The notes under the pieces are model-generated. The model searched no databases and was not told the origin of the DNA. It saw nothing but the letters and a program-made list of their open reading frames with translations. DNA of 39,229 nucleotides from contig JAZQIE010000059.1 in NCBI GenBank assembly GCA_045540975.1, positions 1-39,229 on the forward strand, in the 5' to 3' direction. The translations under genes were made by a program, and so were the position numbers. The DNA comes from Eubacteriales bacterium (GTDB lineage: Bacteria > Bacillota > Clostridia > Oscillospirales > JAAYXM01). Below are positions 19,866 to 37,441 of this stretch, piece after piece (within the stretch, counting starts at the first letter, position 1; each line of letters opens with the position of its first letter).

Positions 19866-21410
19866 TCATTCAACAAGTTGATTGTGCTCAAACCGCACCG
19901 CGTAGGTCTCTCCGCTTTGGACGGTGAAGGTTCCCGTTCCGTGGAAGTCTCCGTTTTGGAATTCCCCGACATACACTCTCCCGTCGGGGAAGTTGTAGAC
20001 TCCGCGGCGGTGCCACACGCCGTCTGTCCATTCGCCCTCATACACCCCGCCGTCGGGATACGTCATCCTGCCGCGGCCGTTTTTTTCGTCATCTGCCCAA
20101 GCACCCTCGTAGACCGCGCCGTCGGGATAGGTCATCTTGCCGTGGCCGTGGAATAAATTGTTTTGAAACTCACCCTCGTATACAGACCCGTCGGGGAAGG
20201 AGAACGTGCCGTGACCGTTTCTTTGGTCGTCTGCCCATGCACCCGCGTACACCGCCCCGTCGGGATAGGTTATCCTGCCGTGACCGTGGAACAAATCGTT
20301 CTCCCAATCGCCCTCGTACACAGACCCGTCGGGGAAGGTGAATGTGCCGCGGCCGCTTTTTTGGTCGCCCTTCCACTCGCCCTCGTAGACCGCGCCGTCG
20401 GGATACGTGAACGTGCCGTGACCGAGCATTTCGTCATCCACCCATGCACCTCGGTACGAAGCGCCGTCGGGATAGGTCATTACGCCGTAGCCGTGGAAGG
20501 AATCGTCCTTCCAGCCGCCCTCGTAGACCGCCCCGTTCGGGAAGACGAGGGTCCCTGTTCCGTTCTTTTTATCGTCCTTCCACTCGCCCACATACGAAGC
20601 GCCGTCGGGGAAGGTGAATGTGCCGTGACCGTTAAACGCGCCGTCTTTCCACTCGCCGGTGTAGGCCGCGCCGCTTTGATAGGTCATCGTACCGTGTCCG
20701 CTAAACCGCCCGTCTGCCCATTCGCCTTCGTACACCGCGCCGGAGCGAAATTCAATCACACCGTGTCCGGAACGGAAGATGGCACCTCCGAAATCAAACG
20801 GATTGTAGTTCGGGTCAATTCCGAAATTGACCCCAATCTGCTGCACCAAATCATCTTTGTGGTACGGGTTGGAGAAGGAGAGATAGGTCGCCTTGTCGGG
20901 AAATGCTTCTGTGAGGAGCTGCACCCAATCGTGCTGCGCCGACATCTCGTCCTCGGTGTCCGAAAATTCCTTGATCGGAAAAACCGATTTTAGAATCTTG
21001 GACGGGGATTTCTCGGTCAGATTCACACAAAAATAGTTCCGCTTCGTTTGTGGAAGGGCGGTCACCTTGTCTTTGCCGCAAGCGATTTGGATTTCGGTCT
21101 GAATCGAGCGGCTCAAAAACAGATTCTCGCTTAAATAAAAGATGATCCCTTCGCATTTTGGGTCGGTCATCTTCTCGCGTACCACATCGTCCCAGTTTTT
21201 GCCTGCGGGCAGTCCGCTGTCGTACCAGAAAGGAATGTCGCTTTCGTAAAGGTCCGCCAAATCACTGTAAACCTTCTTGTAATCCTTGTGGGAATAACTG
21301 ATGAAAATGTACGACTCATTCGTTTCCCGCAAAGGCACCTTCGCACAGGTGTCGCAAGAGGTTGTTTCTTCCAAATACTTTTTATACTCTGCCGCAACAA
21401 ATTCTGCCAT
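19866..21410 (-). CDS. TIR-domain protein with C-terminal MORN repeats
   Basis: YIFISYSHKD, WYDSGL.AG..W, GIIFYLS....S.SIQTEI; 12 full 23-aa repeats YxGxWxxxxxxGxGxxxxPDG. Confidence 0.9.
   Translation of the reverse strand: MAEFVAAEYKKYLEETTSCDTCAKVPLRETNESYIFISYSHKDYKKVYSDLADLYESDIPFWYDSGLPAGKNWDDVVREKMTDPKCEGIIFYLSENLFLSRSIQTEIQIACGKDKVTALPQTKRNYFCVNLTEKSPSKILKSVFPIKEFSDTEDEMSAQHDWVQLLTEAFPDKATYLSFSNPYHKDDLVQQIGVNFGIDPNYNPFDFGGAIFRSGHGVIEFRSGAVYEGEWADGRFSGHGTMTYQSGAAYTGEWKDGAFNGHGTFTFPDGASYVGEWKDDKKNGTGTLVFPNGAVYEGGWKDDSFHGYGVMTYPDGASYRGAWVDDEMLGHGTFTYPDGAVYEGEWKGDQKSGRGTFTFPDGSVYEGDWENDLFHGHGRITYPDGAVYAGAWADDQRNGHGTFSFPDGSVYEGEFQNNLFHGHGKMTYPDGAVYEGAWADDEKNGRGRMTYPDGGVYEGEWTDGVWHRRGVYNFPDGRVYVGEFQNGDFHGTGTFTVQSGETYAVRFEHNQLVE
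19880..20760 (-). repeat. Diverged 69-bp tandem repeats encoding MORN units
   Basis: Recurring CCGTCGGG[G/A] at about 69-nt period; 23-aa period in the translation. Confidence 0.85.
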
Positions 21411-24552: not shown

Positions 24553-24582
24553 CAGCGGAGTGGGGTTTCCCACTCCGCTTGT
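24553..24582 (+). terminator. Terminator after hppA
   Basis: AGCGGAGTGGG-gttt-CCCACTCCGCT hairpin. Confidence 0.75.
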
Positions 24583-24594
24583 TGTAAAAAAGAA

Positions 24595-24782
24595 AACCAC
24601 GCGATAGTCGCGTGGTTCAAAAGAGGTTCATCGGTGAACAAAAAAATCCTCCAATGTGTTAGAATACCTTGACCGCCGGTCAAGAATAAAACACATTGGA
24701 GGATTTATCTATGAAAAGAGAAACCATAGACAAAAGTAGTTTAGCACACACAAAATGGATTTGTGAATATCACATCAAATAT
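24595..24782 (+). mobile_element. tnpA: IS200/IS605-family remnant (end hairpin, structured 5' UTR, tnpA 5' fragment)
   Basis: AACCACGCGA-tag-TCGCGTGGTT hairpin; 17-bp inverted repeat covering the GGAGG RBS; ATG 24711 reads MKRETIDKSSLAHTKWICEYHI, the typical TnpA(Y1) N-terminus, then similarity stops. Confidence 0.8.
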
Positions 24783-24788
24783 TTTGAC

Positions 24789-25598
24789 CTAATCAATATT
24801 ATTTCGCCATGCCTGATTGATGCGGATATTGTGATGGTGTTGTTCAGCATGATGGATAGCACTTTTATATTTGCTTCCTCTTGCAAATAAATCGATCTTA
24901 AGTTTATCACCAAAGGTTTGTTCCATTATGCATTCAACAATACCGTCATCTAAAAAACTACAAGAAAAAATATCAATGTTCGCAGTGCGTTCCAAAATGT
25001 CGTAATGAAAGGCAATGTGACTTTGAGCAACTACAAGGACACCTGAAATAAATTTCGGGGATTGTGTTTTGTCGTAAATAACATACGGACGCGAAATAGG
25101 CAACATATTGATTTTGGGGGCAATGTTATCAAGCCAGTTGAATATTTGCTCCGCGGTCACGTCGAAATCCTCTATGGTTATCATATAATGAGGCCCGAAA
25201 TCTAAGGAGGAATTGATTGTATTTGGAGGACTGTTGTCATTGCGTCGATCAACCACAATGGTGTTTATGTTTCTTGCATATATCTGCTGGCTGATAACAC
25301 GAATCGCTTCTTCTTCCGTGCAAAAATTGTCCGTTAGAATGTCTACGAAATAACAGTGGCGATACGGGAATGTATGAATGGTTACATGCGCGCCATTTTC
25401 ACAAATAACAAATGCACTGATACCACCATCTTCGGTGTCGTCACAATAATAGTAAGGAAGTAAAAAGGGCGGCATAACCGGACGCATCCCCAACTCGTGA
25501 GTCAAACTTACAAGTAGGTTGTTAACAGCCATAAAACTGTTAGATTGCGCCAAATCACAATCATATGCATCCATCATGACATGTCTGGTTGCTTGCAT
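24789..25598 (-). CDS. Tandem-domain S-adenosylmethionine decarboxylase (SpeD)-like protein
   Basis: Two SpeD-like repeats: H..MDAYDC...GISAFVICENGAHVTIHTFP...FVDILT and FGPHY...ISGVLVVAQSHIAFH...NIDIFSC. Confidence 0.75.
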   Translation of the reverse strand: MQATRHVMMDAYDCDLAQSNSFMAVNNLLVSLTHELGMRPVMPPFLLPYYYCDDTEDGGISAFVICENGAHVTIHTFPYRHCYFVDILTDNFCTEEEAIRVISQQIYARNINTIVVDRRNDNSPPNTINSSLDFGPHYMITIEDFDVTAEQIFNWLDNIAPKINMLPISRPYVIYDKTQSPKFISGVLVVAQSHIAFHYDILERTANIDIFSCSFLDDGIVECIMEQTFGDKLKIDLFARGSKYKSAIHHAEQHHHNIRINQAWRNNID

Positions 25599-27913
25599 TA
25601 GATTTCTTCCTTTCTGGAATCATTGAAAAGATTATTGAATCTTCTAAAATTAATTAAAACAGGATCGATCCACCACTTGTAGTTGGAGCGAATCACATTG
25701 GGCAAACAATAATAAACTTCGCTTCTCGGATAAGAGAATTCTGACAAAACGTTAATATTGGTTTGGTACTCCAGCTTGTTATCGTTATCGATGTCAATAT
25801 TTAGCGAAAAGTTAACTGTCTTGTAACCGTCCGGATTTTCTTTGCTGCGGTTAAATGCTGCGGTAAATGGGTAAATCGTATTAAACAGATTGTGGTCGAA
25901 TGGCGTATTACCGTAACTTCCTGTTTTGAAATATTCAAGTATTTCAATCGTTGTATTTACCCAAGTTTCTGCGTGTTGGTAGGGCGCATCACTTACTGAT
26001 AGCAGACGCATATAATGCTTTTTTAACACGCGTTTATCAATGATTTCGTATTTGCCTACTGCCACGTATAGATTGTGTGGGTTAGGCATGTTAGAGTTGT
26101 TGGATAAATCGCAAAAAGAGATAAAAGCATCAAATAAGCGAAGAGTTCCTTTGGGATGATCGGTTTCATAATTCTCTTTCGCAAGTTTTTCGGCTTTTCC
26201 TTGTGCAGCAGCAAAAAATTCATCTTCAAGCTTTTTTTGCGCGTCGGCAATGATGTCCTCGCTTAAGCACTTGTTGCTTGCCTCGTTGTCATACTCTGCT
26301 TTGATTTCCCCGTATTTATACAAACCGGAGTAAAAACACATAAGGTGCTTGAATGTTTCGCTAAGTATGATACATGCATGACGAATCCGCTTTTCACTCT
26401 CTGTAGAAGAATCCATGCTTTTTAAAAGCGAAATATTACTGTGGAGGTTTCCTGTGTAGATCAGGCTCTCATTCTGTTTGTTCTCCTGAAACATGGAGAG
26501 GTGGGAAACGATTAACATCGCACGCGCACGCGCTAATAATCTCCCTGTTGGTTTTGGTTTTGTGATTTTGCCGAAACCACCCGCTTCACCTACAACAAGT
26601 TTTGTGTCGTGAATTCGCTGCACCTCTGCATTTAATTCAGCCTGCTTTACGTTGAAACAAGGGAGGTCTGTGCGCTTGTATAAATTGGATACTATGTCGT
26701 AAAATGTCTGCGGAACACTCCACATAAGACGCTCAAGGACTGCAGTGGGACTTGCTTCGATGAGTAACATGATAACAATGGTATCCCAGTCAAGCGAATG
26801 AATGTCATTTTCGTAAACCGGTTGTTTAGACTGCGCCCCGCTTTTTTGAAAAACATACGGATATGCCGCACCGAAATGCTTATGAATTGCCTCTTTGCTT
26901 CCCGCGTTGGCACTGATTGCATCGGAAATTGCCAATGCCAGATTCTTGATATACTTATAATTAACAGTATGTATCTGATCAATGCTGTTAGAGTTTTTGA
27001 TGGTTTTGTCTGATTGTGACGAAAAAGGCATTTCGAAGCCGGTCAGTTCCATGTATACTTCGTTTGGACGCTGATTAATTAAATGTGATGAATTGTTGTC
27101 ATCGTCAGGGAGCGTGAAAACAACGGAATTGTTGCCGGAAAAGTATTTCAACACAATTAACGGTTGAGTGGATTGATTTGCGTCTGCAATATCTTCTCGC
27201 AATTCCACACTAAACAGATGATAAATTCCGCCGAACAGATTTGAATCGCGGAAGAAAATATGGTTTAACGGTAACACATCGAAGTCACAAGAGGAATTGT
27301 TTGTGCAGACAAAACGAAACATATCTGCACTCAGTTGTTGTAATTCATAATTGTGCAAGAAGGTTAATGTCTCAAGCAGTTCTTTTAACATTCTAAGCGA
27401 TTCGGCCTTGTTTTCGCATTGATAGCGTGAAGGATTTTTATCATATGCGGAAATGAGTTTAAAATAAGGATTGAAACTAAAACGACTCATATCCCTATTG
27501 CTTAAATCACCAAATACATCCTTTAATTCCCCACCGTTTTGGGCCAAGTCAAACTGAATATCTGTCAACACATATTGAATCAGTTCTTGGGTGGCAGGAT
27601 ATCGCACGAAGACGTCTTTTAAACTCTTGATTACCCGTTTAGCATTATGCTTCCCCATTTTTTGAGAGAACATACCGCCGAAGTCCATATCATAACGGTA
27701 ACATGCATAAGAAAAATAGAATGTCAACAATAAAGCATTTTTCATGAAAACAGGATAAAGCCTATACTGACTCAATAAATCCTCCAAAAGTTCATCTATA
27801 TCGTCCGTGCCGAAGATGAAACTACGGATATTACTGTCGACGATTGTATCCTCTAAAAGATGTTCAAGCAGTCGTCTTTGCTTTTTAATCTCGTCTTGGA
27901 CCCTATTCTCCAT
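25598..27913 (-). CDS. Hypothetical protein, 771 aa
   Basis: Long open frame in AT-rich DNA, GGAGGA RBS, TAATG coupling to the next gene; no family recognised. Confidence 0.85.
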   Translation of the reverse strand: MENRVQDEIKKQRRLLEHLLEDTIVDSNIRSFIFGTDDIDELLEDLLSQYRLYPVFMKNALLLTFYFSYACYRYDMDFGGMFSQKMGKHNAKRVIKSLKDVFVRYPATQELIQYVLTDIQFDLAQNGGELKDVFGDLSNRDMSRFSFNPYFKLISAYDKNPSRYQCENKAESLRMLKELLETLTFLHNYELQQLSADMFRFVCTNNSSCDFDVLPLNHIFFRDSNLFGGIYHLFSVELREDIADANQSTQPLIVLKYFSGNNSVVFTLPDDDNNSSHLINQRPNEVYMELTGFEMPFSSQSDKTIKNSNSIDQIHTVNYKYIKNLALAISDAISANAGSKEAIHKHFGAAYPYVFQKSGAQSKQPVYENDIHSLDWDTIVIMLLIEASPTAVLERLMWSVPQTFYDIVSNLYKRTDLPCFNVKQAELNAEVQRIHDTKLVVGEAGGFGKITKPKPTGRLLARARAMLIVSHLSMFQENKQNESLIYTGNLHSNISLLKSMDSSTESEKRIRHACIILSETFKHLMCFYSGLYKYGEIKAEYDNEASNKCLSEDIIADAQKKLEDEFFAAAQGKAEKLAKENYETDHPKGTLRLFDAFISFCDLSNNSNMPNPHNLYVAVGKYEIIDKRVLKKHYMRLLSVSDAPYQHAETWVNTTIEILEYFKTGSYGNTPFDHNLFNTIYPFTAAFNRSKENPDGYKTVNFSLNIDIDNDNKLEYQTNINVLSEFSYPRSEVYYCLPNVIRSNYKWWIDPVLINFRRFNNLFNDSRKEEI

Positions 27914-27930
27914 AAACGTTCCTCCGTTGA

Positions 27931-28845
27931 CTAACAGTTGCTGATAATTGCCGCAAGCTTCCTGTATCTTTCCAGTGCAAGTTTCTCGTTTTCATTCAGT
28001 TCAGCTTGGGTGGCCAGTTGACCTTCGCGCCACATGAAACTCTTGACCGCCGGAATCCCAAATTCGTTTTCGTCTAACATACCGGTTTCGTAAGAAATAT
28101 CGTCGTCAGCGTTTTGAACCAGCATTTCAAACTGAGATGTAATACGTTTAACTGCATAATCCGGGTATTTCTTGTCATCTACAATTACTTCTTCCTGGGG
28201 AATAACATTTGGCACAGCTATAATCTTCTTTCGTCCGTCAAACGAACCACCCTGTTCCAAGGATTTTAAAAATCTAACGGTTCCGTTGACAAATTGGATG
28301 GTAGGACGCATGCAGCAGACAACAATGTTGGAGACCTGATTTGTAGCATTCGCTGTTGCGTTGTTGCCAACAGCAGCATCTAAAATCACCGCAGGAACTT
28401 TATAATACTTGCAAACGTCAATAAAATCGCGCAGTTTTTCGGTGAAAGGATTGTTGGAATCGTTATAGTTTCCCTGGTCATCAACGTTTTTTACATCTTT
28501 TGCAGCCAAGAATAAAATAGATTCTTTATCGTAGCCGAAATGGTCTCCGACAGCAAAGAGATCTTTGAAATTAGGATGTTGCCAAATGAATTCCGGATAG
28601 TCTAAGGATTTCAATCCGTTCTTCAACAAGTCCTGTGTACAACATTCGTCGGTTACTTCGGTATCAACCCCTAATAAATAAGACATGCCGCAACTATCTA
28701 AGTCAGTATCAATGATGATTATGGGATGGTCTTTGGTAGGATGAAGATGTTCTTTGGCGAGAATCGGAATCGTATTATATGCTAAAGTACTTCTGCCGGC
28801 ACCACCCTTGTATGAAAAATAAGAAATTACTTTTAACCTTGCCAT
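27931..28845 (-). CDS. ParA/MinD-like ATPase, KGGxGR variant
   Basis: Deviant Walker A SYKGGAGRST (Arg in place of Lys), IIDTDLD, ILDAAVG; GGAGGA RBS. Confidence 0.82.
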   Translation of the reverse strand: MARLKVISYFSYKGGAGRSTLAYNTIPILAKEHLHPTKDHPIIIIDTDLDSCGMSYLLGVDTEVTDECCTQDLLKNGLKSLDYPEFIWQHPNFKDLFAVGDHFGYDKESILFLAAKDVKNVDDQGNYNDSNNPFTEKLRDFIDVCKYYKVPAVILDAAVGNNATANATNQVSNIVVCCMRPTIQFVNGTVRFLKSLEQGGSFDGRKKIIAVPNVIPQEEVIVDDKKYPDYAVKRITSQFEMLVQNADDDISYETGMLDENEFGIPAVKSFMWREGQLATQAELNENEKLALERYRKLAAIISNC

Positions 28846-28868
28846 AATATCCTCCGTGAATTGTTATT

Positions 28869-31157
28869 TTAGCCTAATTTGGTATACATGTTGCTTCTGT
28901 GATTGACATCGCTTGAGATGTCATCAATGTTATGGTTGATAATTGCACGCACATCTTCTTTGAAATATTTGGTTTGTTTCTCATATTCTTCAGGTGTGCA
29001 ACGCTTGAATGAGGAACTGTTTGCATAGCATTCGGCAACTACCATTTCCGTCATAGCGCCAAAAAGTTTTGCATACGTGCCGTTTTCATCTTGTGTGGGA
29101 TTAACTGTATCGGGTGCAAAACATGCCGCTGCCTGAGAGAATGCTTGTGTAAGAAGTGCAACGAATTGTGTGCTCAATTCCTTCTCTATCAGTTCACAGA
29201 TGCTATCCTCAACAGTTGGCTTTTTCAACCTTTCCTCTTCTAATAATTGTTCAAGTAACGCAATGCGGCTGTCACGCTGCGCAATCAGTCTGTCTTTTTC
29301 CTCTTCTGCTTTTTCGTGACGAGCTTTCAACTGCGTGATTTCGCCGTTGGGACCGGTAAGTCTGCTGTAATACTCTTGCTCTCTTTTTTGATTGTCGGCA
29401 CCAACTTCGATATACTTTTTTTCGTATGCTTCGTAGTATTCGTAAAGCTCTTTCAAAGCATTAACATAATAATAGTTACTACCGCTGAAATATCCGTCTT
29501 TTTCCCAAATCCACTCGGTGGTCTTGCCTTGCTCGGAACTTTCGGTGTATCGGTTTTCTAAAATAAAACCGGTGTACTTCTGCATGTTGATTTGGGGGTA
29601 TTTCACCAAATATGCGTTAATGATGTTGTTGGTGTGGATGAGCATGGGAAGAAGAGAGAAGACCCTCATGCGCAGTTTTCTTAAATCGTTAACACGTTCC
29701 TTATGGAAAACGAAGCGTTCGTTAAAACCGATAAGAAATTGGTCAACAATATAGTCCTTGCCATCGTTTTTTAAACTTTCATATGTACGGAAAGCTCGTT
29801 GTACGGCGAGCTGACAACTCTCGAGGAGGTTGTTGTATTCTCGCGATTTTTGGACGGAAAGGTTCCTTTGCTCTTCACGTTCTTGAGGAGTAATACTCTC
29901 ATCAGCGCTTTTTATTTCCGCCTGACGCATTTGCAGTTGCAATAACTCATCCATGCCACCGTCAATCAGGATATTAACAATATATACGGTGTTAAACAGA
30001 ACGTCACTGGTAGTACTCATGCGAAGTTCACTTTCGCTAAGTTTTGTAGCTAGGTCATTATAGAAGAAACTGTCTGCCAAGTCGGTGTTAACAAAACTCC
30101 AAATTGCGCTTGCAACATCTTTTAAATGCTTTTCCAAGAGTCCGTAGCGATGCGTAGAATCTACTTTGATTTCCTCGTATGGATCTTGCTCGCCGATTCT
30201 ATCGTTAGAGTTAATCATTCTAAATAAACGAACAAGTTCATTGTAGGTATCGTGACGGGCAACATCTTTGGGCTTGTCAGCGTTCTCTGCTTCTTCGAAC
30301 TGGTATTTTTCTTTCTGTTCGTCAAACTTCGCTTTGGCTTCTTCGTCAATTGGAGTGCCAAATTGTGCGTTGTTAAATAGGCTATACGGATATTTTAACA
30401 CTTCCTCAAATGTTGCGAACATATCCAGGAAACATTCACCGACTGTAAAGGTAAAGTATAAAGAAGGTTCTTCACAGTTCTTTGCAAAGTTCCAGCCGAT
30501 TTTCAAGCCTTTGCCATCCGGATTTTTGCTACCATCGATAAATGCGTTGTTGATATAGCGGAGACCGTATCGAATAATGCTAATTAAGTTGTGCTCCCAT
30601 TTGCAAATCTGTCCGGCCTCAGCATGGATGGTTAAAATCTGGAAGAAGGTAGGAAGTACCCAAGTGATGGTTTCAATGCTTGCGATTTCGGTATCAAAGT
30701 GATCAGAATCATACGGAGAAGCATCAAATATAAAGAGTTCCTTAACGCTCTCCTGTTCGTTTATATCCTCGTCAATTTCAATGTCGCTCACACGGAGTTT
30801 GTTGATGATATCTTTCAAAATCGCATCCATTATATTACGGATAGACCGATGGTGAATGGTGTCATACTCGGTATTGTCAAACTCCAAGCCAAAGTCGTTA
30901 ACCAACGAAACCAGTGTTTGAAGGCCTTGACACTGTGACAGCAAACCAACCTTCTTTTCGGCGTCGTCCATTGGAATACCCAGTTTACCGTTGCCCAAAT
31001 CGATTAGACGTGCATTGATCGCTTTGAAGATATCACGAGCAACTTCGCCTTGCGCTTTGTAAATCGGAAAGATGGTTTCAATATGCTCACGCTCATGACT
31101 CTGCATTGTTTTTTTGTCCAGTATATCCTTTAAGGGGTTGTTTTCAAACTGTTCCAT
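28869..31157 (-). CDS. Hypothetical protein, 762 aa, helical with C-terminal coiled coil
   Basis: Long ORF with GGAGGA RBS; E/K/R/Q-rich heptads near aa 600-660; weak alpha/alpha-barrel-like repeats (GLRYI...GW...SLYFT). Confidence 0.85.
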   Translation of the reverse strand: MEQFENNPLKDILDKKTMQSHEREHIETIFPIYKAQGEVARDIFKAINARLIDLGNGKLGIPMDDAEKKVGLLSQCQGLQTLVSLVNDFGLEFDNTEYDTIHHRSIRNIMDAILKDIINKLRVSDIEIDEDINEQESVKELFIFDASPYDSDHFDTEIASIETITWVLPTFFQILTIHAEAGQICKWEHNLISIIRYGLRYINNAFIDGSKNPDGKGLKIGWNFAKNCEEPSLYFTFTVGECFLDMFATFEEVLKYPYSLFNNAQFGTPIDEEAKAKFDEQKEKYQFEEAENADKPKDVARHDTYNELVRLFRMINSNDRIGEQDPYEEIKVDSTHRYGLLEKHLKDVASAIWSFVNTDLADSFFYNDLATKLSESELRMSTTSDVLFNTVYIVNILIDGGMDELLQLQMRQAEIKSADESITPQEREEQRNLSVQKSREYNNLLESCQLAVQRAFRTYESLKNDGKDYIVDQFLIGFNERFVFHKERVNDLRKLRMRVFSLLPMLIHTNNIINAYLVKYPQINMQKYTGFILENRYTESSEQGKTTEWIWEKDGYFSGSNYYYVNALKELYEYYEAYEKKYIEVGADNQKREQEYYSRLTGPNGEITQLKARHEKAEEEKDRLIAQRDSRIALLEQLLEEERLKKPTVEDSICELIEKELSTQFVALLTQAFSQAAACFAPDTVNPTQDENGTYAKLFGAMTEMVVAECYANSSSFKRCTPEEYEKQTKYFKEDVRAIINHNIDDISSDVNHRSNMYTKLG

Positions 31158-31168
31158 GGTTTTCCTCC

Positions 31169-32176
31169 TTAATTTTCTAATTTGTTTAAGAGTGAATAGA
31201 GTATAACTGAATCAAGTGTTATTACCGGGCGGATGCCTTTTTGATATAATTTGTGATTGTAACCGTTTTTATATATTGTACCATCCTCACGAATAACTGC
31301 TTGAAGATGACCGACTGTTTCGGTAAGCCACCAAATCTTATTTCTTGACAGTTCTTCTTGTGTCAATTGCTCGGCTTCTTCCAAGGTCAACAATCTAATT
31401 TTCCCCTGTAATTCACGCTGCTCATTCTCCGAGAAAGATTCCTTTGTAAATTTATTCAGCCAATCGCTTAGCGCTTGTCCACCTAAAGTGTCGGTTAAAA
31501 CATCTTGACAGAGCAAGGTGGATTGATTGTTTTCATCAGAGATTTTACGCCAAAGAATAGGTTTGTTGTCGTAAATCCCGAGCCTAAAAATAACATCCTT
31601 ATTTGCGTTCGAAAGGTCTACAAGTTTATCGCGGATTAGTTCATGTTCGTCTACTGTTTGAGCTGCAAGGCTTTTTATGTTTTGGAATAAGCTTTGCTTG
31701 TCCGCTACATTGGTTGCGGAATAGAACAAATGATCTTTTTTTCCGAAAAGGCTGCGAAAATCATCGTAATCATCATCGGAAAAAAGATCCTCTCGTTTTT
31801 TGACGAAATTCGTCAAAAAACGATAATCAAAATCCTGATCGTCACCTATCATAATAATTTGCGGATAGAACATACCTTTAGGACGAGATTCCTTCGTTTT
31901 AGCGGCCGCGCGCCACTCCTTTGCGACGTTAGGACTCTCAATTGCGCTTTTGCTGCAAAAGAATAGAATTCCGGAACAATTCTCGTGTGACAACAAGTCT
32001 TTTGCGATGGTTTCCCAATCGTCGCCACCCATAAACGCTGTGTCCCACCAAATGCGAACACCCTTGTCAATCAGATAATTGGTCCAATCTTGTACAATTT
32101 CCTTGTCATCATGTGCATAACTGACAAACAAAAACTTGTCTGTTGTTGCTTCGGCAGTTGTGTAAAAACTCCGCAT
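31169..32176 (-). CDS. TIR-domain protein with C-terminal DUF6273-like domain
   Basis: FLFVSYAHDD, IWWD....G.DW, GILFFCS..AIES.NVAKEW (candidate catalytic Glu); C-terminal LG....PILWR...LL...WLN.F....FS..E...IRLL..EEA...WWL...GIRPVI.L. Confidence 0.82.
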   Translation of the reverse strand: MRSFYTTAEATTDKFLFVSYAHDDKEIVQDWTNYLIDKGVRIWWDTAFMGGDDWETIAKDLLSHENCSGILFFCSKSAIESPNVAKEWRAAAKTKESRPKGMFYPQIIMIGDDQDFDYRFLTNFVKKREDLFSDDDYDDFRSLFGKKDHLFYSATNVADKQSLFQNIKSLAAQTVDEHELIRDKLVDLSNANKDVIFRLGIYDNKPILWRKISDENNQSTLLCQDVLTDTLGGQALSDWLNKFTKESFSENEQRELQGKIRLLTLEEAEQLTQEELSRNKIWWLTETVGHLQAVIREDGTIYKNGYNHKLYQKGIRPVITLDSVILYSLLNKLEN

Positions 32177-32224
32177 GTCGAATGCCCCTCCAAAAAATAA
32201 ATCGCAATACTAATATTCATTATA

Positions 32225-32253
32225 ATTATACGATTTTACAATGTTTTTGTCAA
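32225..32253 (-). promoter_or_regulatory. Perfect-consensus sigma-A promoter for the five-gene operon
   Basis: Minus strand TTGACA-17 nt-TATAAT; GGAGGGG RBS at 32185-32191. Confidence 0.85.
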
Positions 32254-32448
32254 TGTTCCATGGGTCTATTATTTGTTTTCTAGGAATAAATTGTCAGTTT
32301 TTGTTCTGCAGATGATAATCCTATCTTGTTTTCTAAAAAGCAGAAATGACACAGCGAATAAGTAAATATTTATTTTGTAAAAAACTGAAGTTTGCAAAAA
32401 CCCTTTATTCACTCATGAACACCATCTTGTTTGATCCCCGCGTGGCAT

Positions 32449-32502
32449 AAAAAGCCCTCCTATGGACGTTGGCTCAAGTCGACCGTAGGAGGGCTTTTTT
32501 TT
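32449..32502. terminator. Strong bidirectional terminator-like hairpin at the island edge
   Basis: AAAAAGCCCTCCTATGG...CCGTAGGAGGGCTTTTT. Confidence 0.8.
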
Positions 32503-32567
32503 ATTGTGAAACAACAAGGTTCCGGGGCACCCGACCGCAATCTATGATTGCGTGACGGGTCGGGTTC

Positions 32568-35500
32568 TTATTCCGCGGTTTTTACAATGGTTTCAAGCGC
32601 AGTTTTTTCGTCGTCACTCATGTTTTCGCCGTTACGAGCGAGACCGTTTTCCGCAACCTCAAAGATGGAACGCTCGGTCCAGGTGTCACCGTAAACCGTT
32701 TGCTCAACGCCGTTTTCATCCACATAAATGACATACGCTCTTGCGACAAAGACACGTTTGTAGTGTCTCGGCTCAAGGTTAATCAAAACCGCGGTGAAGG
32801 TGACCGAATCCAGCGAATCACGGTAGCGATTCTTTGCGACAACCTTCGCGGATTCCGCACCGTTCTTACCGACATAACCCAAGGTCAAATCCGAGCCGTC
32901 ATGACCGTCTAAGAGGAAATCCTTCGGCAGGAGAACCGTACCGAATTCCTTCACCTTGGAGGAGTCAACGTTGTACTCACTCTTATAGATGGTGGAGATG
33001 AAGCGGAGACCCTGATCGCCTTTGGTACGAACCTGCGCACCCTCAAGTGTGTAGAACGCATCACCGGTGCGGTGCAGGGTCAGTCCGTGGAGCGAAATCA
33101 GACCGCCGCTTGTACCTTTGTAGTTCACTGCGGTGGATTTCACGGTCAGAATGTACTCGCCCGCATAAAGCGCACGTTCGCCAAGCTCCAAGCCGTAGGC
33201 CAGGTTGCTTCTCTTGGTGATGTGATGGGAGCCAACCTTCCATCTCTCAGCGGTCGGGTCGGTCGCATTAATGGGTGCAATGTAAACATCAAAGTCGTTG
33301 GCTTTGCTCCAATCGGAGATGTTGAGCACTGTGCCGTAGTTTGCATCCTGATCAACCTTGAACTTGAGCTGAGTGTAAGTACCCACGGTTTTCGAGCTCA
33401 TCACAAACAAGCCGTAGCCTTGGGAGGTGGACTTGGTGTAATTGCAGTAGTTTTCGCTCGCGCTGGTGCTAAGCAGCATCCACGGTGCAGAGCCGCCGTC
33501 GGTCGATGCGGTGTATGAAGTCGCAAAATCCGTAGTAAACAGATTAAACGCGGTTGCATCGTTAAATTCGGTCGGGAAATCACGGTATTTCTCAACCGGT
33601 GCCTTAAAGTCAAAGGTGTAGGAGGAATTCTCCTTCTGTCCGATGATGACACGAACCTTGCCGACAATCGTTCCGTCCGCGGTGGAAATCGCGGTGATGA
33701 GCGCGGTACCTTCGGTTACCGCCTTGGTGGTGATTTCACCGCTTGCGCTAACCGTTGCAACCGCTTCGTTGTCGGAAACCCAGGTCACAGTCTGTTCCGC
33801 CAAAAGCGGATGAATCATCGGAATGAGCGTATGACTTGCATTTGCGCTTAAGTACAGCGCTTCGTCCACATGGTTGATAAAGCGAATATCCTTCGGCTTC
33901 GGCTGGACATACGGACCTGTTTTGTGCAGGACAAACGCGTGCAGATAGATGTAACGGCCGATTGATTCCGCAGACTTCAGCACCATGTTGTATTTGCCCT
34001 TTGCCAAATGGATTCCGTCAAAGCGCTGGCTGTCAAGACCGAGGTCTGTCACAATCACATCGCCGTCTGCTTCGCCATCCAATTCCGTGGTGCCGACGTA
34101 ATATGCCTCATGCATCAAGTCGTCGGTCGGGCAAGAAATCGGGGAGATGTAGAGTTCCACCTGACGGGAGCCCTGTGTATCGGACGAATTCAGCGCCAGA
34201 TACTGAAGGATTTCCGGAGTGTAGTAACCGTCTTCGGTGATTTCAATCTCAAAATGTGCGTAAGAGTCGTTGTTGTTGCCGAGGAGGAAGAGACCGTATT
34301 TGTAGTTCGGGTCGGTCTTATCTCCCTCGCCGTCCTCGATTGCGGATTCACCGGTATACGCGGTGGAGATGGAATCGTATTTTTCAATCAAACGCCAGCC
34401 CTGACCGAAGTCATGGTAGTTCTTCCAGGAATAAGCCGCATCGGTGAAGGTGGTGTCATCGGCAATGTTGACTCTGAGCTTACCGGTGGACTCCGCGTAC
34501 TTCTTGATAACCTCGTTGAAGGCGTAAACCTGTGCGGTGGAGCCAACCTGAATGACCACAGTCTCCGAACGAGCATCACGCGCGGTCGCGGTAATGAGTG
34601 CGACACCTTCGCCCTTCGCGGTCACAAGACCGGTATTCTTATCAACCGTTGCAACGTCGGTGTTCGACGAAGTCCATGAAACGATATCCTGCACCGCCCA
34701 AATCGGCTTGACGGATGCGGTAAGCTGCACGGTATCACCAATCGCCAAAGGCGCCATCGCCTCAGACGGTTTTGTGATGACCACAGCCTTCGGGGTGAGG
34801 GGGTCAGCCTCGGTGTCGGTCTCAACCAACGCGAGGTGATACAGATAGAGGTAACGCGCGGTTTTTTCGCCGTTTGCATTCAGCGTACCGTTGTATTCGC
34901 CAACCTTAAAGGTGAGGTAATACTCACCCGCTCCGAGGTACATTGCCTCATCGCTTCTCTTTGCCTTGATTGTGCCTGCACCCGGAGCATTCGCATCGGG
35001 AGTCAGCGTCATTACATGCTTGGTGTACGGGTCCTGACTAATCGGGGAAATGTAAACCTCGGACTCGCGCATATTTCCGGGGCCGTTGTCACGGTACAAC
35101 ACTTCGGGGGTGTACCATCCGCTTGTATCCACGCGAATCTTAAAGCGCACCCACTTGTCACTCCCGTTGCCAAGGTCGAGGAATACGCCGTAGCGTTCGT
35201 TGTATGTGGCATTGCCGTTGTTGTCTACGTGCGCCTGATACACGGTGGGGAGGATGGTGTTTGCATCCTGACCCACGAAAACCCACTTGTCACCGACAGT
35301 GACCTTGCTGTAATCGTTAAAATAGTCAAATGCAATCGAGGACAAAGACTGCTCGGCAAGATATTTCTTTGCCACATTGTTAAAGGTATAGAGCAGAGCA
35401 CCGGTAGATACCGAGGTGACCTCCTCACGTCCGTCAACCGTTGCGGTAATCACATTACTGCCCTTGAGTGTTCCGCTTGCGGTGAGAACGCCGTTATTTA

Positions 35501-37172
35501 CGCTGACGTATCCGTTCTGCCCTGCCGCAAAGCCCCAGGTAACGGTTTGATCCGCGGTACTCGGAAGCGCCTTCACGCCCAGCTTGTAGGTATCGTTGCC
35601 TGCGGTCATCTTCGGGGTCGGGTTATCAATCACAATGCGGGAAGCCTTGTTCGCATTGCTGTATGCACCTTGATACAAAAGTGCGATATGATTGACAAAG
35701 ACATATCTGCCGCTAGTCGATGTTGTCTTGAAGGTGACGTAATATTCACCCTTGCGCAGAGCAATCACACCGCCTTTTGCATGTTCCATAGCCATGTTTG
35801 TGCTGCCGGCTTGTGTCTGTGCTACATATGCCTCTTCCGGGCAGGAGCCTGCCGCATAGGTGGTCGGATAAATGTAAACATTGGAAGTGACTGAACTGGT
35901 GTGATTGACATAAGCAATATCCGGGATGTAATTGCCGTCGCTTTCAACGTTGATTTTGAAGGTGACGGTTCGACCTGCCAATTGAGTATCCTGAATATCA
36001 ACAAATGCACCGTACCAGCTGTTGACGTCACTGCGATATGCGGCAACTCGGAGGGGGGAGGTAATGGTACTGTGCGCAAAGCACCACTGATCTGCGCTTG
36101 TGCTGTTCGCATAGGTGTTTTTGAACACATTGTCAATTTCCACTGTCTCGGATTCATTTGCACGCATATAGTTCTGCGCATCCTCGTTGATGGCATACAA
36201 CTGGGATTTGCTGTTGCCGACAAGGACAGAAACCATTTCTCTGCGTGCGCTGGTTGTTGCGGCAATGACCGCACTTCCCGTGGTACTGCCTGCGGTCACA
36301 AGACCGGTGCTCGCATTCACACCTGCAACAGAAGCGTTAGAGGAACTCCAAGTCACGCTGGGCTGATGAACATAACCGCTTGCGACACTGTGCGGAATCT
36401 GCAGCGCACGAAGCTGACGGGTAGCGCCCGCGCTCAAAATCGAGCCGCTGTTTCCGTAAATTGCCAGTTTCTTTGCGGCTGCCGGTGCGGCATCACTGTT
36501 TTTGGTCAGCTTCACATTGTGAAGCATAAAGTAATTATGGTTGGCTGTTTGATTCGTATTCGGTCGGAACGTAATATAATAGTTGCCGGCTGTCAGCGGT
36601 ACACTGTAAGCTGCCCCCTTGCTTTCCAAAACACCGGTCGTCGGGTACTGCATATCGCCGCTGTTGATGGAAACAATCTGTTCGGAAACATCAAGCAAAA
36701 CCGGCTGATTGCCGGATGCCGAGGACAAATACACTGCGCACTCGCGGGCAGATTCGTAATCATAGTAGGTCACCGAAATACCGTAAGTGCCTGTTTCCGG
36801 GACATTGATTTCAAAGGTGGCGTAGTTGTTTAGTCCTTCACTGCCGGAAAAGAGAAACACACCGTATTGTTCTTGCGCGCTGCCGTTGTGCTGAATCAAG
36901 CCGGTATTGGTCCGCCCACGTACAAAGCGCCATGCGGCAGTACTGCCGGAATAGGTATTTAACGTATCAAATGTGGTGTCAGTCGTAAGACTGAGTGGGT
37001 TGCTGCCGAAGGAAGCAGAATTGTTCGTATGATGTGTCTTCAAGCCTTCCGCAAAGTTGTAGACATATGTGATGTCTGCCGCACTTGCGGAAAACATATC
37101 GGCGGGCAAAAATGCCACCAACATACAAACTGCGAGAAGAAGGGAGGTGAGCCGTCGAATCATTGTGTACAT
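32568..37172 (-). CDS. Large secreted modular protein (about 1534 aa): 5 beta-sandwich modules alternating with 4 Big_2 Ig-like domains, plus conserved C-terminal domain
   Basis: ATG 37172 with GAGAGGA RBS; signal peptide RRLTSLLLAVCMLVAFLP...ASA; VTWxSSNxxVAxV..GLVTA Big_2 motifs; recurring YGxF...FxIxV..xGxY...LxAGxYYxTF modules. Confidence 0.85.
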   Translation of the reverse strand: MYTMIRRLTSLLLAVCMLVAFLPADMFSASAADITYVYNFAEGLKTHHTNNSASFGSNPLSLTTDTTFDTLNTYSGSTAAWRFVRGRTNTGLIQHNGSAQEQYGVFLFSGSEGLNNYATFEINVPETGTYGISVTYYDYESARECAVYLSSASGNQPVLLDVSEQIVSINSGDMQYPTTGVLESKGAAYSVPLTAGNYYITFRPNTNQTANHNYFMLHNVKLTKNSDAAPAAAKKLAIYGNSGSILSAGATRQLRALQIPHSVASGYVHQPSVTWSSSNASVAGVNASTGLVTAGSTTGSAVIAATTSARREMVSVLVGNSKSQLYAINEDAQNYMRANESETVEIDNVFKNTYANSTSADQWCFAHSTITSPLRVAAYRSDVNSWYGAFVDIQDTQLAGRTVTFKINVESDGNYIPDIAYVNHTSSVTSNVYIYPTTYAAGSCPEEAYVAQTQAGSTNMAMEHAKGGVIALRKGEYYVTFKTTSTSGRYVFVNHIALLYQGAYSNANKASRIVIDNPTPKMTAGNDTYKLGVKALPSTADQTVTWGFAAGQNGYVSVNNGVLTASGTLKGSNVITATVDGREEVTSVSTGALLYTFNNVAKKYLAEQSLSSIAFDYFNDYSKVTVGDKWVFVGQDANTILPTVYQAHVDNNGNATYNERYGVFLDLGNGSDKWVRFKIRVDTSGWYTPEVLYRDNGPGNMRESEVYISPISQDPYTKHVMTLTPDANAPGAGTIKAKRSDEAMYLGAGEYYLTFKVGEYNGTLNANGEKTARYLYLYHLALVETDTEADPLTPKAVVITKPSEAMAPLAIGDTVQLTASVKPIWAVQDIVSWTSSNTDVATVDKNTGLVTAKGEGVALITATARDARSETVVIQVGSTAQVYAFNEVIKKYAESTGKLRVNIADDTTFTDAAYSWKNYHDFGQGWRLIEKYDSISTAYTGESAIEDGEGDKTDPNYKYGLFLLGNNNDSYAHFEIEITEDGYYTPEILQYLALNSSDTQGSRQVELYISPISCPTDDLMHEAYYVGTTELDGEADGDVIVTDLGLDSQRFDGIHLAKGKYNMVLKSAESIGRYIYLHAFVLHKTGPYVQPKPKDIRFINHVDEALYLSANASHTLIPMIHPLLAEQTVTWVSDNEAVATVSASGEITTKAVTEGTALITAISTADGTIVGKVRVIIGQKENSSYTFDFKAPVEKYRDFPTEFNDATAFNLFTTDFATSYTASTDGGSAPWMLLSTSASENYCNYTKSTSQGYGLFVMSSKTVGTYTQLKFKVDQDANYGTVLNISDWSKANDFDVYIAPINATDPTAERWKVGSHHITKRSNLAYGLELGERALYAGEYILTVKSTAVNYKGTSGGLISLHGLTLHRTGDAFYTLEGAQVRTKGDQGLRFISTIYKSEYNVDSSKVKEFGTVLLPKDFLLDGHDGSDLTLGYVGKNGAESAKVVAKNRYRDSLDSVTFTAVLINLEPRHYKRVFVARAYVIYVDENGVEQTVYGDTWTERSIFEVAENGLARNGENMSDDEKTALETIVKTAE

Positions 37173-37288
37173 GATATCATTCCTCTCAATATGTAGTTTT
37201 TTTGTGTAATGATGGAAATACACAGAATAATCATAACATAAATATGAGAAAAAGTAAATACTTATCGAAGTTTTTATAACAAAACAAG

Positions 37289-37320
37289 AAAAAAGGCAGA
37301 GCCATGATTGACTCTGCCCT
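37289..37320 (-). terminator. Intrinsic terminator after the small peptide gene
   Basis: GGCAGAG...CTCTGCC stem followed by TTTTTT on the minus strand. Confidence 0.8.
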
Positions 37321-37333
37321 TTGAATGAACCTG

Positions 37334-37441
37334 TTATGCCCACGGATCGGAGACATCGTTGTCGCCGTAAGACGCGGTCATTACATCATCGGTCAAAAAG
37401 ATTTCAACCTTCAGTTCGGGGGATTCGTAGAACTCTTTCAT
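37334..37441 (-). CDS. 35-aa peptide MKEFYESPELKVEIFLTDDVMTASYGDNDVSDPWA
   Basis: AAAGGAG RBS, ATG at 37441, TAA at 37334, starts 15 nt after the upstream stop and is followed by a terminator; below the ORF-track cutoff. Confidence 0.8.
   Translation of the reverse strand: MKEFYESPELKVEIFLTDDVMTASYGDNDVSDPWA

Follow-up and report, generated by a model that had tools for sequence, protein, structure and literature searches.

The window analysed here is a 39,229-nt stretch of DNA from a Eubacteriales bacterium (assembly GCA_045540975.1, contig JAZQIE010000059.1, forward strand). Its gene at 24789..25598 on the minus strand encodes a 269-aa protein with two SpeD-like repeats and is the last of a five-gene operon that also encodes a TIR-domain protein, a ParA/MinD-like ATPase and two orphan proteins, called pA and pB below. 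Judged from its sequence and predicted fold, this tandem SpeD appears to be a single-chain pseudo-dimer of the class-1b S-adenosylmethionine decarboxylase (AdoMetDC) fold, which would have a single active site and decarboxylate an amino acid by means of a pyruvoyl group. We are highly confident of this architecture and of its one live site. For the whole reading, in which this pseudo-dimer decarboxylates arginine and closes a horizontally acquired conflict-type cassette, we have a modest preference.

The internal duplication had been noticed in a preliminary description of the gene made from the sequence alone. A Pfam scan confirmed it, as AdoMet_dc (PF02675) matched the protein with 73.3 bits (E 2.4e-20) in two stretches. 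When all six frames of the genome were searched with a cut-off of 25 bits, both halves exceeded it separately, at 25245-25583 (49.8 bits) and at 24909-25151 (27.1 bits). Repeat 1 (residues 1-125; 25224..25598, minus strand) is the non-processing half and repeat 2 (residues ~130-243; 24870..25211, minus strand) the putative active half. They are followed by a C-terminal helix with a conserved W264 (residues ~244-268; 24792..24869, minus strand), which has low model confidence (predicted local distance difference test, pLDDT, ~60). The sequence strings quoted in the preliminary description are all present in the open reading frame (ORF): CENGAHVTIH at residues 66-75, DILT at 86-89, VAQSHIAFH at 190-198 and DIFSC at 209-213. 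The two repeats align colinearly over 107 aa (E 0.003) and are 19% identical there; A70 faces S193 and G69 faces Q192.

The AlphaFold2 model, calculated from an input alignment of 25 sequences, showed two beta-alpha-beta4-alpha-beta units (pLDDT 82.1, predicted template modelling score 0.82). Its N-terminal half matched T. maritima AdoMetDC with Z 15.4 (115 aa aligned, root mean square deviation 2.8), and residues 1-243 matched the human AdoMetDC proenzyme 1jl0_B with Z 15.0 (205 aa, root mean square deviation 3.5). A Foldseek search of the model agreed with these AdoMetDC fold matches. Domain matches, residue alignment and model fold all fit the proposed single-chain pseudo-dimer with a non-processing N-terminal repeat.

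Repeat 1 was aligned by HMMER to the S63A mutant of T. maritima AdoMetDC (1tmi). A70 fell on position 63, that of the pyruvoyl Ser, and in the same alignment D90 fell on Cys83 and Y79 on Glu72. The N-terminal repeat, without the Ser (A70) and without the Cys (D90), is apparently dead, as had been suspected; it retains S61, H71, the H75-T-F-P motif and R80. Repeat 2 (ISGVLVVAQSHIAFH...DIFSC) was read in ungapped register with the T. maritima motif, giving S185, Q192, S193, H198 and C213; D209 also lies in this half. The Ser, His and Cys expected there are retained (S193, H194/H198, C213). The pyruvoyl Ser, processing His and proton-donor Cys of class 1b thus have S193, H198 (with H75 in trans) and C213 as their counterparts. 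The E-S cleavage site of class 1b is absent from both halves, with Q192-S193 in repeat 2 and G69-A70 in repeat 1. The predicted self-cleavage site occupies 25020..25025 on the minus strand, where the codons of Q192 (25023-25025) and S193 (25020-25022) were read directly from the sequence. The ribose-binding Glu (HTWPE in T. maritima) is replaced by Y79 in repeat 1 (HMMER) and by L202 in repeat 2 (ungapped register).

In the passages of Kozbial and Mushegian (PMC1282579) that deal with AdoMetDC, the two sandwich halves jointly form the active site: one half gives the pyruvoyl Ser and the Cys, the other the processing His and the ribose-binding Glu, and a Glu ending strand 3 contacts adenine. 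Because the halves share the active site, the one live site of the window protein would combine S193 and C213 of repeat 2 with S61 and H75 of repeat 1. We take the adenine-contacting Glu to be the residue directly before the pyruvoyl Ser, an equation of our own that is absent from those passages. Read this way, both putative acidic AdoMet-contact positions are changed, with Q192 for the Glu before the Ser and Y79/L202 for the ribose Glu. In the proposed mechanism, repeat 2 would cleave itself between Q192 and S193, S193 would become the pyruvoyl group and C213 would be the proton donor. Repeat 1, unable to process, would supply the other half of the beta-sandwich and, by analogy with the shared site of AdoMetDC, probably the trans-acting S61 and H75.

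The pairing of an apparently dead with a putatively live repeat is confirmed, but it is no special feature of the window gene; the architecture is family-wide. A word-indexed search gave 336 proteins at E <= 0.001 among 513 candidates, and the best 120 of these 336 (225-273 aa, 53-87% identity) come from metagenome-assembled genomes of Oscillospiraceae and other Clostridia. A phmmer search over 1.84 billion representatives gave 286 proteins at E <= 0.001, 71 at E <= 1e-10 and 27 at E <= 1e-30. Among its 150 listed matches, about 50 are tandem proteins of 225-310 aa in which repeat 1 reads G-G-H-x-T-x-H-T-F without the Ser and repeat 2 reads I-A-E/Q-S-H-I. A single metagenome scan gave 392 relatives, and the best 80 of these were retained, a sample that is biased towards the query. 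The counts below refer to 90 loci (the window and 89 others) and to 59 representatives at <= 90% identity.

Among the 59 representatives, the position of the pyruvoyl Ser in repeat 1 is Gly in 51, Ser in 6 and Ala in 1, the window gene, with 1 unread. Conservation reaches 95% or more at 38 positions, among them S61, H71, H75, R80 and D86 in repeat 1 and S185, S193, H194, H198, D209 and C213 in repeat 2. On these alignments the conservation pattern of the tandem family is well above chance, and a dead N-terminal with a live C-terminal repeat is, as far as sequences tell, the common state of these ~265-aa proteins. In the literature searched, leaving aside the supplements of Li et al. 2023 (PMC10407285; Fig. 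S5, alignments), no description of a tandem SpeD family with this reversed polarity was found.

The Q-S site, to which the preliminary description had drawn attention, turned out to be the majority state of the sampled family, with Q-S in 40 and E-S in 19 of the 59 representatives. The agmatinase-linked representatives (25, discussed below) showed Q-S in 17 and E-S in 8, and the cassette-linked ones Q-S in 20 and E-S in 3; among more distant representatives E-S predominates. In a maximum-likelihood tree (IQ-TREE, 59 rows) E and Q swap several times, and the swaps fall in the agmatinase-linked clade and in the clade of cassettes of the agmatine-deiminase type. Q-S was also considered as a marker of cassette-linked enzymes and rejected, since Q-S and E-S were both found in both contexts. 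Being present in the metabolic context as well as in cassettes, Q-S does not tell the function of an enzyme. Free E/Q variation would fit an enzyme that no longer binds AdoMet, provided that the Glu before the Ser serves adenine binding.

A Gln at the cleavage site might also block processing, and the protein would then be a catalytically dead scaffold with a structural role only. The canonical class-1b site is E-S and dead SpeD paralogues exist, such as the T. brucei prozyme, which is among the fold matches of our model. Against such a scaffold stand the conservation of S193, H194, H198 and C213 at 95% or more and the Q-S majority among the agmatinase-paired enzymes, which makes sense only if these are active. 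We regard the dead scaffold as hardly credible.

The likely substrate was approached through the gene neighbourhoods of the 90 loci. The tandem SpeD gene lies directly downstream of an Arginase-family gene in 53 of them (Q-S 41, E-S 12), and in one further locus (L037; E-S) the order is agmatinase, ATPase, pB fragment, SpeD. Two loci are speD-speE operons (both E-S), 24 hold at least one core gene of the cassette (Q-S 21, E-S 3) and 10 have no informative flank (Q-S 4, E-S 6). The Arginase-family neighbour in L054, the sole one checked with NCBIfam, passed the agmatinase equivalog with 195.4 bits against a cut-off of 174.3. The agmatinase gene either adjoins the tandem SpeD gene or overlaps it, and the two move together as a unit among unrelated neighbourhoods. 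Such a pair is probably an unrecognised arginine-to-putrescine module. Translationally coupled pairs are seen, for example, in L054, L045, L041, L050 and L077 (around 8100-9800), some on contigs labelled human gut, and one pair sits between CotE/LysM sporulation genes and an Eco57I-type methylase.

Both speE operons hold a separate class-1a AdoMetDC (428-439 bits, cut-off 255.8) and SpeE, and the operon of L014 also holds an agmatinase (308 bits, cut-off 174.3). The tandem proteins of these operons are 35-38% identical to the window protein and score 47-50 bits against the class-1b cut-off of 75.65. Beside one speD-speE-tandem SpeD operon (L013, genome G235) a KamA-family, lysine 2,3-aminomutase-like radical SAM gene was observed at 8580-9695 on the plus strand (250.9 bits, cut-off 199.2). 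A speE-linked tandem gene is a second SpeD-like gene beside a true class-1a AdoMetDC, which points to an arginine decarboxylase rather than an AdoMetDC. In addition, a 602-aa relative (P0300) is a tandem SpeD fused to a PAD_porph domain of the agmatine-deiminase family. From the agmatinase adjacency, the operons of class-1a speD with speE and the agmatine-deiminase fusion, the family is probably a pyruvoyl arginine decarboxylase. According to Li et al. 2023 (PMC10407285, main text), reasoning from a pathway hole led to the discovery of SpeDA, and the same logic applied to the tandem family gives an L-arginine decarboxylase. On gene neighbourhood and one fusion, L-arginine as substrate, with agmatine as product, is the assignment that we would choose, though by no wide measure of confidence.

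An ordinary AdoMetDC of spermidine synthesis in fused form would be the routine explanation. The protein matches Pfam AdoMet_dc, relatives are named 'S-adenosylmethionine decarboxylase' in their sources, and the SpeD-SpeD fusions described in the main text of PMC10407285 include a real AdoMetDC. However, the window protein scored 57.8 bits against the class-1b AdoMetDC equivalog (TIGR03330), below its cut-off of 75.65, and six other tandem relatives scored 46.7-67.3 bits, all below it as well. There is no Glu at either AdoMet-contact position, and the polarity is opposite to that of the published fusions. The preliminary description had argued from the missing speE against routine polyamine synthesis, and this holds beyond the window: no speE was found in the window or in the genome (assembly completeness 95.18%), where the only Spermine_synth match is a 181-aa RsmD-like methyltransferase beside coaD. 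It had also said that its view would fall if there were a single SpeD domain, or if the protein behaved as an ordinary AdoMetDC with homologues beside speE. Two domains were found; distant homologues do adjoin speE, but beside a bona fide class-1a AdoMetDC. With the sub-cut-off score, the changed AdoMet-contact positions and the lack of speE, we consider an ordinary AdoMetDC very improbable.

The only AdoMet_dc matches in the genome are the two halves of the window gene, and a genome search detected no Arginase-family gene and no PAD_porph gene. Agmatine made in this genome would have no known onward route, and the enzyme would not be part of polyamine synthesis here. The link to agmatine-using enzymes is a property of the tandem family (53/90 loci, the PAD_porph fusion and cassettes) that is absent at the window locus and in its genome.

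Among known enzymes, the nearest in build are the SpeD1-SpeD2 (SpeD-SpeDC) fusions of Desulfotignum phosphitoxidans, Ca. Omnitrophica OLB16 and Victivallis vadensis reported in the main text of Li et al. 2023 (PMC10407285). They too have two class-1b SpeD-type domains per chain (about 270-320 aa), and in the V. vadensis fusion one domain is degraded, giving a single-site pseudo-dimer. As described there, the N-terminal domain is a live AdoMetDC, the C-terminal domain is an ornithine decarboxylase or dead, and the gene lies directly upstream of speE. The window gene, in contrast, has a dead N-terminal and a live C-terminal repeat, its live domain fails the AdoMetDC criteria, and it belongs to a TIR/ATPase cassette, with agmatinase as neighbour in relatives. 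Compared with the published fusions, which are live at the N-terminus, the tandem family thus shows the opposite polarity. The SpeDA of the same paper is likewise a SpeD homologue that is not an AdoMetDC, comparable to tandem family members linked to agmatinase or agmatine deiminase. The SpeDA and SpeDC lengths printed in its Table 1 (one SpeDA, three SpeDC) are 127-197 aa, against a tandem pseudo-dimer here; this comparison was made by description.

The eukaryotic class 2 AdoMetDC (human 1jl0, 1msv) is also a single-chain alpha-beta-beta-alpha sandwich of two SpeD-like halves with one pyruvoyl site. It differs in having the pyruvoyl Ser in the N-terminal half, an E-S site, putrescine regulation and AdoMet as substrate, and it is 6-9% identical to the window protein. 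The T. brucei AdoMetDC/prozyme heterodimer (5tvm, 5tvf, 6bm7; Z 11.5-11.6 to the model) pairs an active SpeD-fold unit with a dead paralogue as well, but as two separate class-2 chains, whereas here one chain holds two class-1b units. The enzyme is a reversed-polarity variant of the known SpeD-fusion pseudo-dimers; more surprising than this is that it occupies a fixed place in a TIR/ATPase cassette. With the tandem SpeD family, common in gut Clostridia beside agmatinase, the AdoMetDC superfamily would gain a fourth architectural form. The family probably represents an unrecognised agmatine/putrescine route of gut bacteria. Among bacteria it corresponds, with the polarity reversed, to the fusion from which the eukaryotic AdoMetDC has been proposed to descend.

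The cassette, whose make-up the preliminary description had not described, consists of five co-oriented genes on the minus strand in the order TIR, pA, ATPase, pB, tandem SpeD. They encode the 335-aa TIR-domain protein (31169..32176; TIR_2, E 3.4e-13), the 762-aa orphan pA with a coiled-coil-like C-terminal part (28869..31157), the 304-aa ParA/MinD-like ATPase (27931..28845), the 771-aa orphan pB (25598..27913) and the tandem SpeD. The first four genes are separated by 11, 23 and 17 nt, and the ATG of the last gene overlaps the stop codon of pB (TAATG). A consensus sigma-70-like promoter, TTGACA-17-TATAAT (12/12), lies at 32225..32253 on the minus strand, ~50 nt upstream of the TIR start, and two terminator-like hairpins lie downstream of the operon at 24554..24618 (minus strand); both are pattern matches only. 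The operon keeps its gene order in other Clostridia: the five genes were found in unchanged order in 5 of 6 genome loci (26-81% identity), with flanks that are not shared. The sixth (L006, 40% identity) showed a more diverged five-gene layout with a radical SAM match nearby.

In metagenome loci the core pA-ATPase-pB-SpeD recurs, and the gene in first position varies. Across the 18 loci with at least two core genes, the first gene encodes a TIR protein in 10 and an agmatine-deiminase-like protein in 4; two loci have both and two have neither. The agmatine-deiminase-like first genes of L020, L021, L023 and L025 scored 315-318 bits against a cut-off of 381.8, and L017 carries an agmatine-deiminase-like gene two genes downstream. 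The order in L028 is TIR, PAD_porph, pA, ATPase, a 256-aa protein, SpeD, DUF4062, TPR, TIR-LRR, and L023 has an extra TIR-TPR protein. In L037 a 212-aa protein stands between ATPase and SpeD. By hmmsearch, the N-terminal ~260 residues of pB have their counterparts in the 256-aa protein (2.6e-26) and the 212-aa protein (1.4e-7), so the minimal conserved set, in which this N-terminal part of pB is kept, is the ATPase, pB-N and the tandem SpeD. A further protein of 495-535 aa follows SpeD in three agmatine-deiminase-type cassettes (L021:9774-11360, L023:10060-11667, L025:7300-8787); it had no Pfam match, and the L021 copy had no NCBIfam match either.

In the tree the cassette enzymes fall into three clades. 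The first is the TIR type, which is all Q-S (support 100/99) and holds the window gene, the second is the agmatine-deiminase type, and the third, of TIR and radical SAM type, is sister to the agmatinase-linked clade. Cassette-specific changes in the active site were sought, and only conservative substitutions were found at class-specific positions in comparison with the agmatinase-linked enzymes. Since the differences are only conservative, the two groups probably share one activity.

The TIR protein carries E87, invariant across the 11 cassette TIRs aligned, which by the TIR consensus would be the catalytic Glu. The ATPase has an Arg-variant deviant Walker A motif, SYKGGAGRST, and this variant (S-x-KGG-[AS]-[GC]-R) is present in 12 of the 13 cassette ATPases aligned. 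Its nearest family is NF047398, a KGGVGR-motif variant AAA ATPase (E 8.6e-14, 52.3 bits, below the cut-off of 90 bits). The Lys to Arg change in the P-loop (KGGAGRS) and the association with TIR or immune domains are shared with NF047398 and with the MinD/ParA-like domains of conflict systems, which Kaur et al. 2020 (PMC7159879) mention, in the passages concerned, as an inactive domain in such systems. The window ATPase differs by its sub-cut-off score, by standing alone (304 aa) and by its decarboxylase partner, of a kind that this paper does not report.

For the orphans pA and pB, scans of Pfam, NCBIfam and PADLOC gave no family, except that pA had a single weak partial match in PADLOC. Profile searches against PDB sequences gave no match for pB and two chance-level matches for pA, and the ESM Atlas gave no usable match for either. 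They are not detectable paralogues of each other (BLASTP E 0.30, hhalign probability 1.5%). The pB model (pLDDT 75.7) had no PDB match at E <= 0.001 by Foldseek, and its best match in structure comparison reached Z 6.7.

From these components, the cassette is reasonably probable as a conflict system of anti-phage type, going by its sequence features. This reading follows from the low-GC island, the patchy distribution, the TIR with a conserved Glu, the immune-type neighbours (TIR-TPR, TIR-LRR and DUF4062-TPR genes in L023 and L028) and the ParA-like family that PMC7159879, in the parts cited, places in conflict systems. In the proposed mechanism the ATPase with pA and pB would sense or gate. 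The enzymatic output would come from the TIR, which would cleave NAD+, and from the decarboxylase, which would consume arginine or produce agmatine. Thoeris and other TIR anti-phage systems are similar in that their operon is mobile and patchily distributed and encodes a TIR whose Glu is conserved. The cassette differs from them in having no ThsA-like, SIR2, SLOG or Macro effector and in its partners, which are pA, pB, the Arg-P-loop ParA-like ATPase and a decarboxylase. In the literature searched, nothing was found that ties SpeD or agmatine to TIR or anti-phage cassettes. If the cassette is an immune system, it would tie amino-acid/polyamine chemistry to bacterial immunity, which is unreported in that literature.

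Several observations weigh against the picture of a conflict-type cassette with a single shared live site. No PADLOC 2.0 system matches the cassette: the tandem SpeD and pB have 0 families there, and the TIR protein and the ATPase gave only partial generic TIR/P-loop matches. No NCBIfam name of a known defence system was found among the cassette proteins, and no signal receptor or effector was recognisable. In the pB model, death-fold-like rows (Z 4.5-6.3, residues ~318-420) and HEPN-like rows (Z about 5, residues 25-208) stay below the reliable level, so these likenesses may serve as weak leads only. A full tandem relative was present in only 1 of the 22 viral loci that encode a relative. According to Tables 1 and 2 of PMC10407285, SpeD-derived arginine decarboxylases turn over slowly, with a kcat of 0.02-0.6 per s, and this weakens a model of rapid depletion. 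As for the active site, H198 of repeat 2 is also conserved (58/59, with Tyr in the remaining one) and is, besides H75, a candidate processing His. Finally, immunity explains the deiminase-first cassettes and L037 no better than a metabolic or regulatory apparatus would.

In such an apparatus the enzyme would be an arginine decarboxylase of a putrescine pathway that is assembled, activated or regulated by the ATPase with pA and pB, the TIR protein being an accessory regulator. A precedent is the MoxR ATPase RavA-ViaA with the lysine decarboxylase complex, named in PMC7159879. The gene order of L037, the agmatine-deiminase-like genes of L020, L021, L023, L025 and L017, and the conserved residues common to cassette and agmatinase-linked enzymes are in its favour. 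On the other side, the product would find no enzyme to use it in this genome, which lacks agmatinase, agmatine deiminase and speE. The cassette is also very patchily distributed and lies within a low-GC island, and the TIR has its invariant Glu, with TIR-TPR, TIR-LRR and DUF4062 neighbours in related loci. We consider the metabolic apparatus unlikely.

The deiminase and agmatinase variants suggest that agmatine chemistry is integral to the cassette. A small-molecule pathway could then be imagined in which agmatine is converted by the enzyme of the first gene, either the TIR protein, by NAD+ base exchange to an ADP-ribosyl-agmatine-type signal or toxin, or the agmatine deiminase. TIR and agmatine deiminase share the first position in homologous cassettes, and L028 has both. 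Moreover, the clade of L059, L030 and L006 (L006 by tblastn) adds a radical SAM enzyme, followed in L059 and L030 by a PigC-like PEP-utilising enzyme, and one family member is fused to that type of radical SAM domain. However, TIR and deiminase are equally explicable as independent effectors, and the PADLOC and NCBIfam scans revealed no signal receptor or effector. Such a pathway is distinctly improbable in our view. Joined to immunity it would run from a trigger through the ATPase, pA and pB to the conversion of arginine to agmatine and on to the TIR base exchange, with the deiminase instead in sister cassettes. This agmatine-centred immune pathway is, on the present sequences, a long shot; if true, no earlier immune system would have had a pyruvoyl amino-acid decarboxylase at its base, and the TIR product would be of a new class.

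In the radical SAM loci (L059:9816-12973, L030:2937-6098), the tandem SpeD is followed by the radical SAM enzyme (variant_rSAM, 140.7 bits, cut-off 125; MSMEG_0568-like) and then by the PigC/PEP-synthase-like enzyme of ~690 aa. The fused relative, P0294, has 599 aa. These partners hint at small-molecule chemistry.

The operon is horizontally acquired, as indicated by a low-GC island, unshared flanks, a patchy distribution and, in a congener, a position on a different contig from the H+-PPase orthologue. The island (24700..32500, no strand assigned) has a GC content of about 0.39-0.42, against about 0.52-0.58 in the flanks. Sampling of 400 genomes of the class and 401 of the order revealed relatives of the protein in 3 and 2 genomes, respectively, the own genome included. 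Of two congeners, one has the cassette, and its H+-PPase orthologue is on another contig; the alignment of the locus of that orthologue to the window ends at 24560. The empty-site comparison with congeners was not clean: the G640 assembly lacks the H+-PPase region, and a 197-bp stretch shared with G640 is inverted relative to the neighbouring gene.

At the left edge of the island (24579-24772) lies a 194-bp stretch with a 36-nt inverted repeat (75% complementary), which recurs at 87% identity in G640. An ORF at 24711-24887 on the plus strand was considered as the N-terminus of an IS200-type transposase and was dropped, because it had no Pfam match and the 197-bp copy in the congener has no transposase ORF. 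At the right edge (32496-32574) an ~80-bp element with a GC-rich hairpin was observed, with at least 5 copies (90-94% identity) in G640. It looks like a repeat of the repetitive extragenic palindrome (REP) or miniature inverted-repeat transposable element (MITE) type and lies just beyond a bidirectional terminator-like hairpin at ~32448-32500. The island is bordered at 32568-37343 (minus strand) by a gene for a 1591-aa protein with three Big_2 domains, of which the congeners have tandem paralogues of 51-63% identity.

On the one viral contig with a full tandem relative (L096:5544-12324), this tandem SpeD has 245 aa. Its gene is flanked by those of a PAPS-reductase/DUF3440 protein and of a radical SAM enzyme, and genes for a ParB_N protein and a large terminase are close by. 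The window also holds a second TIR gene, at 19866-21410 on the minus strand, whose product of 514 aa has TIR_2 at its N-terminus (E 4.5e-07) together with 11 MORN repeats; the gene lies ~3 kb from the island in DNA of normal GC content.

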